A DNA stretch of 64,000 nucleotides from an uncultured delta proteobacterium (GTDB taxonomy: Bacteria > Myxococcota_A > Polyangia > Haliangiales > Haliangiaceae), in the NCBI GenBank assembly GCA_963848295.1, contig CAWKDB010000010.1, positions 2,304,001 to 2,368,000 of the forward strand, in the 5' to 3' direction. A program made the translations under genes and the position numbers. The notes beneath the pieces were generated by a model, which worked only from the letters and a program-made list of their open reading frames with translations, did no database searches and was not told the origin of the DNA. This document shows, piece by piece, positions 32,170 through 41,677 of this stretch (its first letter is position 1; every line of letters starts with the position of its first letter).

Positions 32170-32328
32170 TCAGGTCTGCGATCCTGCCTTCGCGGGTCTG
32201 ATCTTTTCGGTGCGTGCGATCTGGACGATCTCGCCGTCATGCACGGCGATCACGAGCTCGCCGAACTTGAGCCCGACGAGCGCGGCGCGCACGAGCTCCA
32301 ACGGCTCTGCATCGCGCGGCTTGGTCAT
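32170..32328 (-). CDS. DUF2292/YezD-family small protein (52 aa, not in ORF track)
   Basis: [55 protein letters not shown] overlaps cysA stop; L.FG...I.VHDG.IVQI.RTEK.R signature. Confidence 0.85.
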
Positions 32329-33389
32329 CGCGCTTCCTCTCGCGGGAAGATCCGGGCTGAGCGCACGCGCGCCGAGAGCTCCGCGCCTCGCACGACGCCG
32401 AGCTCGTCGAGCTCGCGGAACGGGAGCTCGACGGTCAACACCTCGTTCTCCGCGGTCGTCACGGCGACGCGCGCCGCGATCCCGATCCGGCGCACGTGCG
32501 ATACCGTCACCGCGATCGCGCCCTCGACGTCGCCGCGACCGAGCGCGAAGTCATGACCGCGGACGAACGCGCGGGCCGGCCCGGGCTGCACGCCGTCGCT
32601 CGGCAGCTCGAGCCCACCCGCGACGAACATCTCGCCGCGCACCTCGCCGCGGAGCACGTTGACGCCGCCGAGGAAGTCCATGACGAACGCGCTCGTCGGC
32701 CGGTCGAAGACGTCGTTGGGGTCGCCGGCTTGCTCGATCCGGCCGCGATTCATCACGATGATCTGATCGGCGACCTCGAGCGCCTCCTCCTGATCGTGGG
32801 TCACGAACACCGACGTCACGTGCAGCTCGTCGTGCAGTCGCCGCATCCACGCCCGCAGCTCGGCGCGCACGCGCGCATCGAGGGCACCGAACGGCTCGTC
32901 GAGCAGCAGCAGCTTGGGCGCTGGCGCGAGCGCACGAGCGAGCGCGACTCGTTGGCGCTGGCCACCGGACAGCTCGCGCGGATATCGCGTCGTCGTGCCG
33001 GCCAGCTGGACGCGCTCGACGAGGTCGCGCACGCGCGCTTCGATCTGCTCCTTGGTCGACGCGTTCGGGCCGCGCCGCACGCTCAGACCGAACGCGATGT
33101 TCTCGGCGACCGTCATGTGCTCGAACAGCGCGTAGTCCTGGAACACGAAGCCGACGCCGCGCTTCTGGATCGGTGCGTCGGTGACGTCGTCGCCAGCGAA
33201 CTTCACGCGACCGCGATCGGGCGCGTCGATGCCGGCGATCACCCGGAGCAACGTCGTCTTTCCCGACCCGGACGGGCCGAGCAGCGCGACCAGCTGCCCT
33301 GCCGGAATCTCGACGCTGACGTCGTCGAGCGCCGGGAACTCGGCAAACGCCTTCGAGACGTGCTCGACCGTGACCTTGAGCGCTGTCAT
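32325..33389 (-). CDS. cysA: Sulfate ABC transporter ATPase
   Basis: [29 protein letters not shown]-terminal TOBE. Confidence 0.93.
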
Positions 33390-34183
33390 CGCGACCTCCT
33401 GACGTGCCATTCCACGATCGTCTTGCACGCGATCGTCGCGGCCGCGATAGCGACGAGGATCGTCGCGACCGCGAATGCCGCCTGATACTGAAAATCGTTG
33501 TAGAGCACCTCGACCTGGAGCGGCACGGTGTCGGTCTTGCCCCGGATATGGCCCGACACGACCGAGACCGCACCGAACTCGCCGACCGCGCGCGCGGTGC
33601 ACAGGATCGCGCCCAGTAGTAGCGGCGACTTCAAGTTCGCGAGCGTGACTCGCCAGAAGGTCTGCCAAGGCGAGGCCCCGAGCGACAGCGCCGCGATCTC
33701 CTGCGCCGGGCCGCGCGCTTCGAGTGCCGGAATGAGCTCGCGCGCGACGAACGGAATCGTCACGAACGCGGTCGTCAGCACGATGCCCGGGACGGCGAAC
33801 ACGATCTTCAGGTGATGCGCCTCGAGGAACCGCCCGATCCAGCCGCGCGCACCGAACAACAGCACGAACATCATGCCGGCGATCACCGGCGACACCGCGA
33901 ACGGCAAGTCGATCAGCGCGACGAGCACGCGCTTGCCCGGGAACTGGAACCGCGTGATCGCCCACGCTGCCGCGAGCCCGAAGCCGATGTTGAGCGGCAC
34001 CGCGAGCGCCGCGACGAACAGCGTCAACCGGATCGCGGACCCCGAGTCCGGCTGCGTGATCGCCGCCCAGTACGGGCCCGCGCCGTCGCGAAACGCGACC
34101 GCGAACACGGTGACGAGCGGCACGACGAGAAACACGGCGAGAAACCCGAGTGCGACCGCGATCAACAATCGGCGCGCGATCAT
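33386..34183 (-). CDS. cysW: Sulfate ABC permease
   Basis: [29 protein letters not shown]. Confidence 0.93.
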
Positions 34184-35067
34184 GGCCCCACCACCGTCGC
34201 CGCCGGAGGCTGCATGGTCGGAGGTGGCGGCGAGCGCCGGCGCAAGGTCGGGATCGTGCGGCCGCGGCGGCGCCACGTCAGGCCGTTGATCGCGATCAAG
34301 ATCGCGAACGAGGCGACGAGCATGACGAGCGACAGCGCGGTCGCGCCGGCGTAGTCGAACTGATCGAGCTTCGTCATCACGAGCAACGGCGTGATCTCGG
34401 TCTTCATCGGCAGGTTGCCGCTGATGAACACGACCGAGCCGTACTCGCCGAGAGCGCGCGCGAACGCGAGCGCGAACCCGGTGACGAGCGCGGGCTGCAA
34501 CGCGGGCAACACGACGCGAACGAACGCCTGCCAGCGGGTCGCACCGAGCGTCGCCGCCGCCTCCTCGAGCCGCGGATCGAGTCCGGCGAGCACCGGCTGC
34601 ACGCTGCGCACGACGAACGGCAAACCGATGAACGTCAGCGCGATGACGACGCCGAGGCGCGAGTACGCTGCATCTATGCCGACCGCGTCGAGGTAACGGC
34701 CGATCACGCCGTGCGGGCCCCAGGTCGCGGTCAACGCGATACCGGCGACCGCGGTCGGCAACGCGAACGGCAGATCGACGAACGCATCGACGATGCGCCG
34801 GCCCGGGAAGTCGTAGCGGACGAGCACCCACGCGACGACCAGCCCGAACCCGACGTCGAGCGTCGCGGCGATCAGCGACGCTCCGAGCGATAGCGCGAAC
34901 GAGGCGAGCGCGCGGTCGGACGAGATCGTGTGCCAGAGCTCGCCGAGTGACATCGAGGACGTCTCGAGCGCGATCGTCGACAGCGGAATCACGACGAGCA
35001 GCCCGAGATACGCGAGCGTGATGCCGAGCGAGAGACCGAAGCCGGGGAGTACGCGGCGCGCCATCAC
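34180..35067 (-). CDS. cysT: Sulfate ABC permease
   Basis: [34 protein letters not shown]. Confidence 0.93.
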
Positions 35068-36071
35068 TACCTCGCGTAGATCGAATCGAACACGCCGCCG
35101 TCGGCGAAGTGCTTGCGCTGGACCGCGGCCCAGCCGCCGAGGTCGTCGATCGTGAACAGCTCGAGCGCGGGCAGCGGGTACTTCGCGGCGGCGATCGCGG
35201 AGCGCGGCCGATAGTGATCGCGCGCGATGATGTCCTGCGCGGGCTCGGTGTAGAGGAACTCGAGAAACGCGCGCGCGACCTCCGTCGTGCCATGGCGCAG
35301 GGCGTTGCTATCGACGACCGCGACCGGCGGCTCCGCGAGGATGCTGCGCGCCGGCACGACGATGTCGATCGCACCGGGCGCTTGCGCCTGCGCGAGATAC
35401 GCCTCGCTCTCCCACGCGAGCAGGACGTCGCCGATGCCGCGCTCGACGAACGTCGTGGTCGCGCCGCGCGCACCCGAGTCGAGCACCGGCACGTGGTGGT
35501 AGAGCGAGCGCACGAACTCGGTCGCGCCGGCCTCGCCTCCGCGTTGCAGCCCGTGGCCCCAAGCCGCGAGATACGCCCAGCGCGCGCCGCCCGAGGTCTT
35601 GGGATTCGGCGCGATCACCGCGACGTCGTCGCGCACGAGGTCGTCCCAGCCCGCGATGTGCTTCGGGTTGCCCTTGCGGACGACGAACACGATCGTCGAC
35701 GTGTACGGCGTCGCGCGGTGCGGCAGGCGGCTCTGCCAGTCGCTCGCCAGCAAGCCGTTCGCCGCGATCGCATCGATGTCGCCGGCGAGTGCGAGGCTGA
35801 CGACGTCGGCATCGAGGCCCCAGATCACCGACCGCGCCTGCTTGCCGGAGCCGCCGTGCGACTGGCGAATCGCGACCGCGATGTGGTGGCTCGCCTCGTA
35901 CGTCGCGGCGAACGCGGCATCGAGGTCCTGGTAGAGCTCGACGGTCGGGTCGTACGAGACGTTCAGCAGCTCGACCGACCCGTCGTCACCGCCCTCGCCA
36001 CACCCGAGCCCGAGCCCGAGCGCGAGCGCGAGCCCGAGCCCGATACTGAACGCGACCGCGAGCCGGGACAC
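35067..36071 (-). CDS. sbp: Sulfate-binding periplasmic protein
   Basis: [39 protein letters not shown]. Confidence 0.93.
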
Positions 36072-36143
36072 GCGGCGCCACGGTGCATCGCCTAGGCCAC
36101 CCGGTAAGCAGCTGATGAACCGATGTCCGCTATAACAGATTCT

Positions 36144-36194
36144 ACGAAATATCGTGTATCACTCGAAATCTCGTGCGCTATCATGATATTTCGT
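36144..36194. promoter_or_regulatory. Three CGAAATNTCG-type near-palindromic boxes (putative enhancer sites)
   Basis: ACGAAATATCGT 36144, TCGAAATCTCGT 36163, inverted ATGATATTTCGT 36183, in an AT-rich divergent spacer. Confidence 0.6.
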
Positions 36195-36198
36195 GGGT

Positions 36199-37716
36199 AT
36201 GGCACTCGACGGCCAGCTGTGGCGCGACGCTTCGCTGTCCGGCGACGTCGCCGATTTTTTCGAGCGGACCGGTGCGCGGCTGCTCGCCACGCTCGATGCC
36301 TCGACGATCGTCGTGCGGGTCGTCGACGGTTCGAGCGATCAGCATCACGTCGATACCGTCGCGGCGATCCGGCGCGGCGCGGTCGGGGTCGCGCACTCGG
36401 GGCGCGCGCGCACACCGCTGGGCGCCGCCGCGATGGCGCGCCTCCTCGCCTGGATCGAAGCGGGTATGCCCGAGCGCGCCGGCGGTCGCGGCGCGTCCGC
36501 GGTCGCGCGCGATCTACTGCGCGGGGTCGGCGAGCTCGACGAGGAATGGTTCGTGGTGCCGCTCGCCGCGCACGCCGAGCCGCTCGGCGCCTTGCTCGTG
36601 GCGGCGCGCGGGCTCGAGCCCCGCCAGCTCGCCGGGATCAGCGAGCCGATCTCCGCCGTGCTGTCGACCGAGCATGCGCGGCGCGAGCTCACGCGGCTGC
36701 GAGAAGCCGCGGAGGCCGACCGCGCGGCCGCCCTCGCCCGCCTGCAGATTCGCGATATCGGCGTCGCGATCGTGGGCGCCGACTCCGGTCTGCGCGACGT
36801 GATGAGGCAGGTCGAGCAAGTCGCTCCGACCGGCGCGCCGGTGTTGATCCTGGGCGAGACCGGCTCGGGCAAGGAGGTCGTCGCTCGCGCGATTCACGAG
36901 CGCTCCGATCGCGCGAGCGGGCCGGTGTTGCGCGTGAACTGCGGCGCGATCGCGCCCGAGCTCGTCGATTCCGAGCTGTTCGGCCACGAGCGCGGCAGCT
37001 TCACCGGCGCGGCGACTCAGCGCCGCGGCTGGTTCGAGCGCGCGGATGGCGGCACGCTGTTTCTCGACGAGATCGGCGAGCTGCCGCACGCGGCACAGGT
37101 CCGGCTGTTGCGGGTGTTGCAGGACGGCACGTTCGAGCGCGTCGGCGGATCGCGCCCGCTCTCGGTCGATGTTCGCGTGGTCGCCGCGACCCACAGCGAT
37201 CTCGCCGCGATGGTGCGCTCCAAGCTGTTTCGCGAAGACCTCTGGTATCGCATCAACACGTTCGTGATCCGGCTGCCGCCGCTACGCGAGCGCGTCGGCG
37301 ACATTCCGGTGCTCGCCGAGCACTTCGCGGATCGCGCGGGGCGCCGATTCGGCGCCGGTCCGCTGTCGCTCACCGCGAGCGACGTCGCTCTGCTCGCCGC
37401 GTACGACTGGCCCGGCAACGTCCGCGAGCTATCCGCGGTGATCGAGCGCGCGGCGATCCTGGGCGACGGTCGCCGGCTCGACGTCGCGCGCGCGCTCGGC
37501 GCGACCGATCGCGTCGCGCTCGCGGCGGACTCGGGAGACCGGTTCCCGACTCTCGACGACGCGATGCGCTCCCACATCGAGCGCGCGCTCGCTCGTGCCC
37601 GCGGCCGGATCGACGGGCCGAAAGGCGCGGCCGCACTACTCGCGATCCATCCGAACACGTTGCGCTCGCGCATGCACAAGCTCGGCGTCGCCTGGGACCG
37701 GTTCCGCCAGGTGTGA
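36199..37716 (+). CDS. Sigma-54 activator with degenerate GAF-like N-terminus
   Basis: GETGSGKE, GSFTGA, FLDEIGE, WPGNVREL, HTH GAAALLAIHPNTLRSRM. Confidence 0.92.
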   Translation: MALDGQLWRDASLSGDVADFFERTGARLLATLDASTIVVRVVDGSSDQHHVDTVAAIRRGAVGVAHSGRARTPLGAAAMARLLAWIEAGMPERAGGRGASAVARDLLRGVGELDEEWFVVPLAAHAEPLGALLVAARGLEPRQLAGISEPISAVLSTEHARRELTRLREAAEADRAAALARLQIRDIGVAIVGADSGLRDVMRQVEQVAPTGAPVLILGETGSGKEVVARAIHERSDRASGPVLRVNCGAIAPELVDSELFGHERGSFTGAATQRRGWFERADGGTLFLDEIGELPHAAQVRLLRVLQDGTFERVGGSRPLSVDVRVVAATHSDLAAMVRSKLFREDLWYRINTFVIRLPPLRERVGDIPVLAEHFADRAGRRFGAGPLSLTASDVALLAAYDWPGNVRELSAVIERAAILGDGRRLDVARALGATDRVALAADSGDRFPTLDDAMRSHIERALARARGRIDGPKGAAALLAIHPNTLRSRMHKLGVAWDRFRQV

Positions 37717-37768
37717 TATCCGCTATAGTTGACAAGGCATCCGCTGTCGCGCTAGACATGTATCCGTT

Positions 37769-38476
37769 ATGGCGGATGACAGCTCGACCTTGCCGCGGGC
37801 GCTCGAGGGAGCCCCTGTGTTGGATGTCTTGCGCTGGGCGGCGACCGCCTTCCCACGGGTAACGTTCGCGACCGGCTTCGGCGCCGAGGGATGCGTGCTC
37901 ATCGACCTGATCGCGCGCCACCACCTGCCGATCGATCTGTTCACGCTCGACACCGGTGTGCTGTTTCGCGAGACGTATGCGCTGTGGCGCGAGCTCGAAC
38001 GCCACTACGGCGTCACGATTCGAGCGGTCCGTCCGGCTCAGACGATCGACCAGCAAGCTGCGCACCACGGCGCCGCCCTGTGGTCGCGCGATCCGGACCG
38101 CTGCTGCGAGCTCCGCAAGATCGCGCCGCTGCGCGCCGAGCTGTCCGGGTTCGACGCCTGGATCACCGCGATCCGCAGGGAGCAAACGCCCGAGCGCTCG
38201 ACCGCGCGCGTCGTCGAGCACGACGCGAAGTTTGGTCTGATCAAGGTCAACCCGCTTGCCGCGTGGACCCACGAAGACGTGTGGGGCCACATCTACCTCC
38301 ACGACGTTCCGTACAACCCGCTCCACGAGCGCGGCTATCCGTCGATCGGCTGCGAGCCGTGCACCTCCGCGATCGTGCCGGGCGAGAGCCTGCGCGCGGG
38401 TCGCTGGCGCGGCGCCGGCAAGCGCGAATGCGGGCTGCACGTGGCGGCTCCGGTCCAAGCCAAGGAGAGATCATGA
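37769..38476 (+). CDS. cysH: APS/PAPS reductase ([4Fe-4S] APS type)
   Basis: LDTG, CCELRK, GYPSIGCEPCT, ECGLH. Confidence 0.93.
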   Translation: MADDSSTLPRALEGAPVLDVLRWAATAFPRVTFATGFGAEGCVLIDLIARHHLPIDLFTLDTGVLFRETYALWRELERHYGVTIRAVRPAQTIDQQAAHHGAALWSRDPDRCCELRKIAPLRAELSGFDAWITAIRREQTPERSTARVVEHDAKFGLIKVNPLAAWTHEDVWGHIYLHDVPYNPLHERGYPSIGCEPCTSAIVPGESLRAGRWRGAGKRECGLHVAAPVQAKERS

Positions 38477-39120
38477 CGCTCTACCCGGTGTTCCTGAAGC
38501 TCGATGCGCTGCCGGTCGTCATCGTCGGCGGCGGACAGGTCGCGGCGGAGAAGCTCGCCGGCCTCGTCGCCGCCGGTGCGCGCGTCACGGTCGTCGCGCC
38601 ACACGTCTCGCCCGCGATTCGCTCGCAGGCGACGGTCATCGACGGCGCCGGCTCGCCCCGCGACGGCGGCACCGCCGAAGGGCGGTGCGGCTTGATCGAA
38701 CGCGAGTTCCGCGCGAGCGATCTCGATGGCACGCGCTGGGTCGTCGCCGCCGCGACGCCCGACGTCAATCGCGCGGTGGCGGTCGCCGCTGAAGCGCGCG
38801 GCTTGTTCGTCAATGCGGTCGACGATCCCGACGCCGCGACCGCCTACCTCGGTGGCGTCGTGCGCCGCGGCGATGTCGAGATCGCGATCTCCACGAACGG
38901 GCGCGCTCCCGCGCTCGCCGGCTTGCTGCGCGAGGCGCTCGATGCGGTGTTGCCGGATGATCTCGAGCGCTGGATCGATGTCGCGATCGCGGAGCGCACC
39001 GAGCACCGTCGCCGGCGCGTTCCGATCGCCGAGCGCCGCCCGTTGCTCCTCCGCGCACTCGATCGGCTGTACGAGCAACGCCTCGGCCCGACCTCGGAGC
39101 AGCCGCGGAGCACGTCGTGA
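38473..39120 (+). CDS. Precorrin-2 dehydrogenase/sirohydrochlorin ferrochelatase (CysG N-terminal module) with 19-aa insertion
   Basis: YPVFLKL, VGGGQVA, FVNAVDD, IAISTNGRAPALA. Confidence 0.9.
   Translation: MTLYPVFLKLDALPVVIVGGGQVAAEKLAGLVAAGARVTVVAPHVSPAIRSQATVIDGAGSPRDGGTAEGRCGLIEREFRASDLDGTRWVVAAATPDVNRAVAVAAEARGLFVNAVDDPDAATAYLGGVVRRGDVEIAISTNGRAPALAGLLREALDAVLPDDLERWIDVAIAERTEHRRRRVPIAERRPLLLRALDRLYEQRLGPTSEQPRSTS
38638..38700 (+). mobile_element. In-frame 57-nt palindromic element copy A
   Basis: ATCGA direct repeats 57 nt apart; hairpin GCACCGCC-GAAG-GGCGGTGC. Confidence 0.75.
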
Positions 39121-39935
39121 CCGGCAGCGTCGCGCTCGTCGGTGCGGGCCCGGGCGATCCCGAGCTGCTCACCGTGCGCGCGGTCGACCGCCTGCGCGCC
39201 GCAGATCTCGTGCTCTACGACGCGCTCACGCCCGAGAGCTTGCTCGCGCTCGCGCCGAACGCGAAGCGATTCTTCGTCGGCAAACGCGCGGGACGTCATT
39301 CGATCGACGGACGGGGCTTGTCCCCGGCCGGCAGCGCCGCCGCAGGACGGCGCGGTTGGATCGAGCAACGGGAGATCCACGGCCTGATGATCCGCGCCGC
39401 GCGGCGCGGTGATCGCGTCGTCCGGCTCAAGTGCGGCGATCCGTTCGTGCTCGGCCGCGGCGGCGAAGAGGCGCTCGCACTCGAGGCGGCGGGCGTGACG
39501 TACGAGATCGTGCCCGGCCTGAGCTCCGCGCTCGCGGCACCCGCGCTCGCCGGCATCCCGGTGACCCATCGCGGGGTCGCGGCCGGGTTCGCCGTGATCT
39601 CCGGCCACGCGGCGAGCGCGTACGAACCGATGATCGACTCGATCGCGCCGGGTGCCCTGACGCTCGTCGTGTTGATGGGCCTGCGCACGCGCACCGAGCT
39701 CGCCGCGCACCTCGTCGCCCGCGGCTGGTCGGCCGAGACGCCGGCGGCGATCGTGCTCGCCGCGTCGCAACCGGGCGAGACGCGCTACCTCGGTACGCTC
39801 GCGACGCTCGGCGAGCTCGCGGCCAGCGCCGACATCGAGTCGCCCGGCGTGATCGTGATCGGCGAGGTCGTCCGCTTGGCGGACGCGATCGGCCGGCGCG
39901 AAGTCATCTTGCCCGAAGCTGCGAGGTCGTCATGA
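39117..39935 (+). CDS. cobA: Uroporphyrinogen-III C-methyltransferase with 19-aa insertion
   Basis: LVGAGPGDPELLT, RLKCGDPFVLGRGGEE, GIPVTHRG. Confidence 0.92.
   Translation: MTGSVALVGAGPGDPELLTVRAVDRLRAADLVLYDALTPESLLALAPNAKRFFVGKRAGRHSIDGRGLSPAGSAAAGRRGWIEQREIHGLMIRAARRGDRVVRLKCGDPFVLGRGGEEALALEAAGVTYEIVPGLSSALAAPALAGIPVTHRGVAAGFAVISGHAASAYEPMIDSIAPGALTLVVLMGLRTRTELAAHLVARGWSAETPAAIVLAASQPGETRYLGTLATLGELAASADIESPGVIVIGEVVRLADAIGRREVILPEAARSS
39303..39365 (+). mobile_element. In-frame 57-nt palindromic element copy B
   Basis: (G)ATCGA repeats 57 nt apart; hairpin GCGCCG-CC-GCA-GG-A-CGGCGC; 46/63 nt ungapped identity to copy A. Confidence 0.75.
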
Positions 39936-41677
39936 GTGTCACTGCTGCTCCGATCCCGGTCGGCCGCCTCGGCTTTGCGAACCACGAGGACATCGACCTG
40001 TTCGTGCAACGCCTCGATGCGTTCGAGCGCGGCGAGCTGTCCGCCGACGACTGGCGGTCATTTCGTTTGCTCAACGGCGTCTACGGGCAACGCCAGGACG
40101 GCGTGATGATGCTGCGCGCGAAGCTCCCCGCCGGCATCGCGACGCCCGCTCAGCTCGAAGCGCTCGCCGAGGTCGCCGATCGGTTCGCCCACGGCAAAGG
40201 CCACATCACGACCCGGCAAAACGTCCAGTTCCACTTCGTGGCGGCCACCGAGGTCGAGACCGCGCTGCGGTTGCTCGCCGACTCCGGGATCACGACGCGC
40301 GAGGCGTGCGGACATTCAGTGCGCAACTGGACGTGCTGCCCGTTCGCCGGCGTCGCGCGCGGCGAAGCGTTCGACCCGACACCGTACGTCGAGGCCCTCG
40401 CTCGCCACTTGCTGCGCGGCCCGTACTCGTCGTCGCTGCCGCGCAAGCTCAAGCCGTCGCTCGGCGGCTGCTGCGGCACCGACTGTTCGCAGGCGTTCAT
40501 CAACGACCTCGGGCTGCTCGCGCGCTCGCGCGATGGCGAGATCGGGTTCCAGCTGCTCGCCGGCGGTGGCTTGTCGACGCTGCGCCGCAGCGCGCTGATC
40601 GTCGAAGACTTCGTACCCGCCGTCGAGGTCCTCGAAGCTGCCGACGCGGTGGTCCGGGTGTTTCATCGCATCGGCAATCGCCACAATCGGGCGAAGGCGC
40701 GGCTCAAGTGGGCGATCGACAAGATCGGCTCGGAGGCCTTCCTCGCGGAGTACCGCGCCGAACGCGACGTGATTCGCGCCGAGGGTGGCGTGCCACTCGT
40801 GCTACCGCCGCAACCGGAGGTCCGGCCCGCGTTGCGCACTCCGCTCGGCGTGTTCGCGTCGGTGACCCCGGAGTACAGCGCGTGGGCGACCGACAGCGTG
40901 CGCGCCCAGAAACAACACGGCTTCTCGGCCGTCGTGATCCGCCTCGTGCTCGGCGACGTCACCGCGCCACAGCTGCGTTCGCTCGCTCGGTTGTGCGTCC
41001 ACTATGGCGACGGCGAGCTGCGCACGACGAACGAGCAGAACCTCGTGCTGCGCTGGGTCGCGACTGCGCGGTTGCCCGCGTTGCATCGCGAGCTCGCCGC
41101 GATCGGGCTCGCACGCTCCGGTGCGAACACGATCGCCGACGTGACGAGCTGCCCGGGCGCTTCGACTTGCAAGCTCGCGGTCACCGCGTCACGCGGGCTC
41201 GGCGCGACCCTGACCGAGCAGCTCGACGACTTGATCCGGCGCCGTCCCGAGCTCGCCGCCGCGACTCGCGGCCTCGACATCAAGGTCTCGGGCTGTCCGC
41301 ACGGTTGCGGTCAGCACTACATCGCCGGCATCGGGTTCCAGGGCGGGATGCGCAAGGTCGCGGGCCGTCCCGCGCCGCAGTATCTCGTCTATGTCGGCGG
41401 CGGCATCACCGCCGATCGCGCGGACTTCGGGCGGTTGATCGCGAAGGTGCCGGCGCGACGCGCGGGCGCCGCCCTCGAACGGTTGCTCGACTTCTATACC
41501 GAGCACGGCGGCACCGGGCATACGTTCTGGACCGACATCGCGACCGACGAGCTCAAGGGCGTGATCGGCGACCTCGCGACGCTGCGCGACGAGGATGCGA
41601 TCGAGGCCGACTTCGTGGATCTCGGCGAAACCAGCGCGTTCGAGGTCTCGAACAGCGAGGGCGAATGCGCGTCGTAG
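39932..41677 (+). CDS. Ferredoxin-dependent sulfite/nitrite reductase hemoprotein
   Basis: TTRQNVQFH, LPRKLK, SCPGASTC, SGCPHGC siroheme/[4Fe-4S] ligands. Confidence 0.92.
   Translation: MSVTAAPIPVGRLGFANHEDIDLFVQRLDAFERGELSADDWRSFRLLNGVYGQRQDGVMMLRAKLPAGIATPAQLEALAEVADRFAHGKGHITTRQNVQFHFVAATEVETALRLLADSGITTREACGHSVRNWTCCPFAGVARGEAFDPTPYVEALARHLLRGPYSSSLPRKLKPSLGGCCGTDCSQAFINDLGLLARSRDGEIGFQLLAGGGLSTLRRSALIVEDFVPAVEVLEAADAVVRVFHRIGNRHNRAKARLKWAIDKIGSEAFLAEYRAERDVIRAEGGVPLVLPPQPEVRPALRTPLGVFASVTPEYSAWATDSVRAQKQHGFSAVVIRLVLGDVTAPQLRSLARLCVHYGDGELRTTNEQNLVLRWVATARLPALHRELAAIGLARSGANTIADVTSCPGASTCKLAVTASRGLGATLTEQLDDLIRRRPELAAATRGLDIKVSGCPHGCGQHYIAGIGFQGGMRKVAGRPAPQYLVYVGGGITADRADFGRLIAKVPARRAGAALERLLDFYTEHGGTGHTFWTDIATDELKGVIGDLATLRDEDAIEADFVDLGETSAFEVSNSEGECAS

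Follow-up and report, generated by a model that had tools for sequence, protein, structure and literature searches.

A 57-nucleotide DNA element with two hairpins, very probably mobile, lies in frame in sirC, cobA and other genes of an uncultured delta proteobacterium

Results

Two copies of one element in adjacent siroheme genes

The window, that is, the whole 64,000-nucleotide stretch analysed here (contig CAWKDB010000010.1, positions 2,304,001 to 2,368,000; assembly GCA_963848295.1), carries two slightly overlapping plus-strand genes of siroheme synthesis. The upstream gene (38473..39120) encodes a SirC-like precorrin-2 dehydrogenase with a siroheme synthase N-terminal domain (TIGR01470, 119 bits; NCBIfam cut-off 62 bits), and the downstream gene (39117..39935) encodes CobA, a uroporphyrinogen-III C-methyltransferase (TIGR01469, 251 bits; cut-off 185 bits). 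Each contains one in-frame copy of the same element. The stretches 38638-38700 and 39303-39365 were aligned without gaps at 46 of 63 nt in the same reading frame and were translated as an earlier sequence-only reading of this DNA had stated; at both sites, two ATCGA motifs lie 57 nt apart. Copy 1, consisting of the 57-nt unit and the shared core (62 nt in total; 38638..38699, plus strand), scored 66 bits with a position weight matrix (PWM) and 70.8 bits with a covariance model. Copy 2 (39303..39364, plus strand; residues 63-81 of CobA) scored 76 and 80.2 bits. The genes around both inserts (32325-41677) form a sulfur-assimilation cluster, comprising a sulfate ABC transporter on the minus strand, a sigma-54 activator and then, with start and stop codons that overlap, likely cysH, sirC, cobA and a sulfite/nitrite reductase; the names other than sirC and cobA are presumptive and were assigned from sequence motifs.

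With numbering from the left ATCGA, the element consists of hairpin 1 (positions 6-13 paired with 21-28, 7-nt loop), an invariant CAGC, hairpin 2 (32-39 paired with 44-51) and a tail with the terminal ATCGA. In copy 1, hairpin 1 occupies 38643..38665 and has two broken pairs, hairpin 2 with its cGNABg loop, the most conserved part, occupies 38669..38688, and the conserved right-end ATCGA lies at 38695..38699, where the (T)CG(A) core is the same as that of the target, at 38639-38642. The corresponding parts of copy 2, also on the plus strand, are at 39308..39330, 39334..39353 and 39360..39364, with the target core at 39304-39307. The sequence-only reading had described a single stem with a C(GNA)G loop. 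That stem, hairpin 2, is real and so is its compensatory change (A-T versus G-C at pair 34-49), but the loop is a four-base c(GNAB)g throughout the family, and the 8-bp hairpin upstream had been missed.

Both stems covary. Across 22 copies, 96% of the cells were paired and double-sided changes were found at 9 of the 16 pairs. None of 500 shuffles reached the observed value, a count that is not a probability because the copies are related by descent, and slid controls paired at 28-54%. In the stems of 104 loci, G-T occurred 77 times versus 41 for A-C, and the strand as written (top) gave the more stable fold in 89 of 107 copies. The loop of hairpin 2, which had been excluded from the selection of copies, read c(GNAB)g in 93 of 107 copies of the window's genome and in 68 of 83 copies of its sister species G061, and GNRA in 1/107 and 0/83, respectively; position 43 was T in 61 of the 107. 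The cGNABg motif is named as a stable DNA tetraloop in the title of a reference within the accessible text of PMC9969394. An A at loop position 4 was also rare in background hairpins (4/130, in a set that includes the element), and the loop is a modest hint for folding as DNA. The four nucleotides 5' of hairpin 2 were GGCA in 52, AGCA in 15, GTCA in 13 and ATCA in 8 of 107 copies.

A classical MITE is expected to end in inverted repeats of at least about 10 bp, and those of the element reach about 4 nt at most. Integron attC sites have a single long hairpin and cross over at the G/TT of a GTTRRRY core, whereas the element has two hairpins and its empty sites break at the CG(A) core and not at GTT. 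Resemblances to attC, an HDV-like ribozyme and a tRNA T-arm were dropped, as the stems or the crossover did not fit and position 56 was variable. The Rfam covariance models gave no match over the inserts at E≤1.

A dispersed family with local arrays

The 7.78-Mb genome, that of a Kofleriaceae myxobacterium, was searched with a PWM grown from the two window copies. This gave 156 hits at ≥14 bits, 142 of them at ≥24, whereas the reversed sequence had no hit even at ≥10 bits. With nhmmer, 174 hits were obtained at E<0.01 and none in the control. The genome-wide count that the sequence-only reading had called for thus comes to 156-174 copies. Additional copies with internal deletions were present. 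In a search with half-elements for an autonomous parent, most hits were, as judged by eye, derivatives with internal deletions, and in no case did a left and a right half enclose a gene. Genome-wide, pairs of ATCGA at a distance of 57 occurred 291 times, and other distances divisible by 3 gave 241-321 pairs. The spacing of ATCGA by itself is therefore no more than chance, and it is the family that makes the case.

Head-to-tail arrays with a period of 57 were found at nine places, with 2-5 units each. Units within an array mostly differed from one another at 0-2 of 54 nt, whereas dispersed loci mostly shared 41-50 of 54 nt with their nearest neighbour. This argues that the arrays arise locally.

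Precise insertion at a short core

Of 90 first copies, 17 had ATCGA as the left 5-mer, compared to 57 of 92 last copies in which it was the right 5-mer. At the left end, position 1 was free and position 2 was T in 66%. The A/C variation at positions 5 and 62 was uncorrelated between the ends, and positions 1, 2 and 5 showed no correlation. Since the left and right 5-mers differ and their variation is uncorrelated, the ATCGA repeat represents the end of the element itself plus a similar target, and the proposal that it is a 5-bp insertion footprint did not hold. The CG was the sole part well conserved at both ends, and the target core common to element and site is (T)CG(A) only; a 2-bp CG duplication may occur at the target. 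The target was symmetric, with T before and A after the CG, R at -2 and Y at +2. TCGA and CGATCG were not over-represented in the genome (rho 0.99 and 0.96, respectively).

The sister species G061, at 88-89% nucleotide identity to the window's genome, carries at least 148 copies. Among 108 that were examined, 5 array members, 20 copies without an orthologous flank on one side and 1 discordant copy were set aside, leaving 82 comparable copies. Exactly 57 nt were missing at the orthologous site in the window's genome for 38 of these (about two of which look misregistered), 20 were filled in both species, and 24 were otherwise different, with decayed copies or nearby indels. At the 38 empty sites the core bases were T in 27, C in 32, G in 27 and A in 32. 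Both window inserts were also present in G061, and three compensatory double changes were found among 12 orthologous pairs of copies from the two genomes. In comparisons that include the unpublished genome G010, all of 19 more distant CobA orthologues were without exactly those 19 residues, and none of 16 same-genus SirC orthologues carried the element. Empty sites in orthologues, which the sequence-only reading had asked to be looked for, were thus found, and they are exact.

The base after the core follows the subfamily

Copies with G20 (usually together with A14, T6 and A28) tended to have T after the right-hand CGA, and copies with C20 tended to have C. For flank base 63, the two subfamilies gave C34/T5 versus C11/T18 among 106 single copies of the window's genome, and C34/T7 versus C8/T13 among 102 single copies of G061, some of which are shared loci (p=6e-4). 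Position 28 itself was less predictive of a C or T at base 63 (p=0.058) than the marker at position 20. At empty sites of subfamily B, the host base equalled that of the left copy in 3 cases, the right copy in 2 and neither in 2. The link between subfamily and flank base may reflect a choice of target, or else a crossover of variable position by which a junction base is copied; both are possible.

The element inside proteins

With our own hexamer-based gene caller, 93 of 120 loci (77.5%) were wholly inside called genes, compared to 87.4% of TCGA sites (p=0.002). There is thus a mild depletion in genes relative to TCGA sites and no preference for them, and the suggested restriction to housekeeping enzymes was not borne out, as the element occurs almost wherever TCGA does. 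The frames of the element largely followed the codon position of TCGA; it was read in four frames and in both orientations, which gave several unrelated peptides rich in Gly, Ala, Pro and Arg. Stop codons were counted in the 46 of 105 single copies with clear coding flanks, with the frame set from the flanks alone. None of the 46 had a stop in the flank-defined frame, compared to 47 of 374 unused frames (p=0.005). This avoidance of stops in the used frame speaks indirectly for translation of the insert, and the element is likely translated as a 19-residue loop. Length-altered copies in coding flanks kept multiples of 3 in 3/3 versus 5/14 cases, which was not significant (p=0.08).

Forty-two host proteins, our own choice of well-called genes, were scanned, and those over the cut-off included Era, ArgS, EF-G, RecG, SbcD and a CinA-family protein with a PncC domain. 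The argS gene (L196, G000 C11:700343-702295), the only one found in the genome, carries five tandem copies in the assembly, which add 95 residues; this insert was absent in 29/29 relatives. A predicted model of CobA had a mean pLDDT of 81, with values below 50 only at residues 58-79 and in the 12-residue C-terminal tail. By residue count on an alignment with 2YBQ, the insert maps to loop 70-80 of NirE, which is described in the accessible text of PMC4731766 as flexible and missing from the crystal. In this one protein examined, the insert would accordingly sit at a surface loop with the fold kept, as judged from the model.

Distribution

Among the matches listed, the covariance model found the element in at least 29 of the 36 genomes of the genus. 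When GTDB genomes were scanned with a sequence pattern, at least 94 loci were obtained. The 80 loci listed were spread over 20 genomes, of which 14 are titled Kofleriaceae, 4 Deltaproteobacteria, 1 Haliangiales and 1 Acidobacteriota. Outside the family, 295 genomes of the phylum were scanned, and two of them had a single pattern match each. Covariance-model hits outside the genus (28-34 bits) were judged on inspection to be chance matches. Phages, plasmids and IMG/VR gave either no match covering 80% of the query or no pattern hit. Among the genomes searched, the element is restricted to Kofleriaceae. Other Kofleriaceae (L088, L089, L099, L105, L111, L137, L160 and L162) carry a subfamily of 60 nt whose tail is longer; CAGC, hairpin 2 and ATCG were kept, and this subfamily also formed arrays, with a period of 60. 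A literature search that left out most subscription journals returned no account of the element.

Candidate mobilisers

RAYT-like Y1 genes were present in 36/36 genomes of the genus, with nine in the window's genome, and no other HUH family was found in all parts of the genus. They were also abundant in genomes without an element among the matches listed, such as G003 and G047. The RAYT or TnpA gene flanked by copies that the sequence-only reading had anticipated was not found: the element flanked 0/9 Y1 loci of the window's genome and 0/29 in relatives (best score 20 bits), and 273 element loci (808 kb) contained no RAYT-like/Y1 or IS91-like ORF, nor did any mobile family recur in them. On contig C10, copies counted by hand on the two sides of the skew minimum were 19+/13- and 19+/11-, which shows no replichore bias; a lagging-strand preference is described for IS608 and ISDra2.

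The multi-copy Y1 genes of the window's genome had a different upstream end block from the element. Seven are close paralogues, two of them frameshifted (L002-L007 and L009; G000 C2:330154, C10:3657655, C2:1374309, C10:1439500, C10:4550601, C10:261800 and C10:3040575), and most share a structured non-coding block of about 500 nt upstream, which also occurs alone, for example at C2:777126-777463, C10:4478026 and C10:3704803. These paralogues and their block are a second, separate mobile family.

In the genomes searched, IS110 was not found (0/1 and 0/5), TnpB was found in 0/5, IS91 in 1/5, IS630 in 3/5 and a resolvase-family gene in 5/5 element-rich genomes. The genomes are incomplete, the window's being 85% complete, and gave no IS200-type TnpA and no autonomous TnpA/TnpB parent with the same ends. 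The IS630 ends in the window's genome were unrelated to the element and mostly followed by TA, and IS630 was not found in G061 or G011. Three reverse transcriptase genes were over the cut-off in the window's genome, and no copy of the element flanked the IS91, IS630, resolvase-family or reverse transcriptase loci that were found. Two further observations were made on transposase genes of the window's genome. Six near-identical IS630-family copies (L505, L507 and L509; G000 C10:977927, 2041368 and 3076498) have a slippery poly-A run before the DDE frame, which suggests a programmed frameshift. An IS91-like Y2 transposase (L308/L309, G000 C10:52.8-54.6 kb) has its N-terminal part on the opposite strand and is apparently rearranged.

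Discussion

A dispersed family, the presence or absence of exactly 57 nt, two covarying stems, a shared target core, tandem arrays and the avoidance of stops were all observed, and we have little doubt that the element is mobile and translated in frame. The sequence-only reading had proposed a non-autonomous, protein-tolerated mobile palindrome that adds 19-residue loops, and this part of it is upheld by copy number, exact empty sites, covarying stems and stop avoidance. How the element moves is a matter of weaker inference. The best explanation, to which we give about an even chance of being correct, is a gene-less 57-base DNA with two hairpins that has been inserted precisely at (T)CG(A) about 170 times, likely moved as folded single-stranded DNA by an HUH enzyme of the RAYT-like Y1 kind acting in trans. 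HUH enzymes bind subterminal hairpins of 20-25 nt and cut by pairing between guide and target, as described in the accessible text of PMC6006769. The single-strand route in trans was ranked first because one strand folds, the conserved hairpins have the size used by HUH enzymes, the end resembles the target and terminal inverted repeats are lacking.

In such a pathway the strand as written would fold, as the bias of G-T over A-C and a loop fitting a stable DNA tetraloop motif suggest. The enzyme would bind hairpin 2 and cut within the CG(A) core at both ends, and a 57-nt circle would close with the junction ATCGAY and insert at a host site resembling this junction. Pairing of the target with positions 28-30, at the foot of hairpin 1, is possible and would account for a base after the core that follows the subfamily; because position 6 pairs with position 28, hairpin 1 could provide such a guide, but the weaker prediction by position 28 than by position 20 speaks against it. 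Insertions that add stops or hit protein cores would be purged, leaving those in surface loops, and arrays would grow locally by slippage or by insertion of multimers. The most far-reaching form of this model is a self-guided single-stranded micro-transposon of 57 nt, in which the foot of the first hairpin pairs with the target, each subfamily programs its own site, and loops of 19 residues, or up to 95 in ArgS, have been written into about a hundred proteins per genome across the genus. We consider that version unlikely as a whole; if it were true, the targeting rule of a protein-coding palindrome could be read from its sequence, and an enzyme class new to such elements would be involved.

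Against the HUH route stand the lack of a Y1 gene flanked by copies, of a GTAG or GATG guide and of a replichore bias, and the abundance of Y1 genes in genomes that gave no element hit. A palindromic target also fits a dimeric enzyme acting on double-stranded DNA, which counts against the HUH route as well. Such an enzyme could be a serine recombinase whose overlap is the 2-bp CG, or else a DDE transposase that duplicates these 2 bp, and it could move the element as a tiny MITE at palindromic TCGA. The symmetry of the target around the CG, the conservation of CG alone at both ends and the resolvase-family gene in 5/5 element-rich genomes speak for this possibility. It is nevertheless an improbable one, since the terminal inverted repeat is about 4 nt at most, the stems covary and favour one strand, the recombinase loci are without a copy, and the IS630 elements of the window's genome have other ends and are not found in two genomes, G061 and G011. 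Alternatively, no dedicated enzyme is needed if replication, repair or recombination inserts the folded single strand at a microhomology of 3-5 nt to the junction and slippage makes the arrays. The lack of a linked mobiliser, the loose match of the core with an apparently variable crossover, and near-identical array units beside much less similar dispersed loci are consistent with this, as is the precedent of CGTC repeats, likewise without a dedicated transposase (PMC3733652, accessible text). However, insertion of exactly 57 nt at dozens of sites and the strict conservation of hairpin 2 and CAGC in both the 57- and 60-nt subfamilies suggest a specific protein reader, and the family occurs in one lineage among those searched, which places this alternative somewhat lower again in our estimate.

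Spread through RNA, with the element transcribed within the host mRNA, folded, and returned to DNA through reverse transcription or recombination on an RNA template, would accommodate the tolerance of G-T pairs as well as DNA does, and three reverse transcriptase genes are at hand in the genome. RNA-mediated spread has reportedly been proposed for cyanobacterial SDR repeats. The near absence of GNRA loops (a single one in 107 copies), the lack of copies beside the reverse transcriptase genes and the lack of an Rfam match argue against it, and the folding strand was more often antisense to the host gene (in the two most used frames, 32 versus 16, p=0.03; over all frames, 38 versus 25, p=0.13); we rate it the least probable of the routes of movement considered. 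A different reading is that the inserts are selected functional modules, such as a peptide motif or a regulatory mRNA hairpin, and not selfish DNA. Both window inserts have stayed in frame since the split from G061, and the compensatory double changes among the orthologous pairs would agree with selection, but the use of four frames in both orientations with unrelated peptides, the decay of many copies by internal deletion and the turnover of sites between sister species make this very unlikely.

Among known systems, the element resembles the Rickettsia palindromic elements (RPE), which are likewise gene-less palindromic repeats found in frame in unrelated genes, where they add a peptide, restricted to a lineage and without a linked mobiliser (PMC10969869, accessible text). 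RPE are about 150 nt long, with 44 integrations reported (Ogata et al. 2000, 2002, as cited in PMC10969869). Compared by description, the element is shorter (57-60 nt), occurs in another host lineage, reaches about 170 copies per genome with about three quarters in called genes, is read in four frames and both orientations, and differs in its defined (T)CG(A) core with exact empty sites and in its head-to-tail arrays. Short GC-rich hairpins with compensatory changes, a high copy number and some intragenic copies are shared with REP/RAYT systems and with GTAG/CGTC-tagged repeats (PMC6006769 and PMC3733652, accessible parts). As noted in the latter source, CGTC repeats also lack a linked transposase, and the reverse strand of the element ends near CGTC. 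In contrast to REP/RAYT systems as described there, the element has two different hairpins in one 57-nt unit, no GTAG or GATG guide 5' of hairpin 2, no A-T-footed stem of 8-9 bp with a CCA tail, a placement mostly within genes and not mainly extragenic, head-to-tail arrays and not inverted dimers, and no RAYT gene that it flanks. Its geometry would fit the ends of IS200/IS605, with two subterminal hairpins of about 20-23 nt, last bases that resemble the target and no clear duplication (PMC6006769), although the cut could fall at more than one place within the core; TnpA/TnpB, an autonomous parent with these ends and a replichore bias were not found.

By analogy, the element would work like RPE and intragenic REP-type repeats, and it departs from REP/RAYT systems and classical MITEs. 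The cyanobacterial repeat SDR5, credited to Elhai et al. in 2008, is said to be about half as long as the element. It offers another parallel, as a very small structured repeat located precisely inside a CGATCG-type palindrome, HIP1 (PMC4390886, accessible text). Here, the phylum is another one, and the genome is not enriched in the target word.

The movement of protein-coding palindromes such as RPE is poorly understood, largely because sites known in both the empty and the filled state are rare. The sister species supplies 38 exact pairs of empty and filled sites, a core of 3-4 nt, a preferred strand and a flank base linked to the subfamily, which makes it possible to try particular enzymes and pairings in vitro with 60-mers. 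The family also represents a natural insertion scan of the proteome of a free-living bacterium, reaching Era, EF-G, RecG and the one ArgS that the genome was found to encode. It provides new protein loops as well, which are able to grow by tandem duplication.

A further observation concerns the loop of SirC that holds copy 1. The sirC orthologues of three relatives (L019, L025 and L027) have other, unrelated inserts in this loop, which therefore is an insertion-tolerant site.
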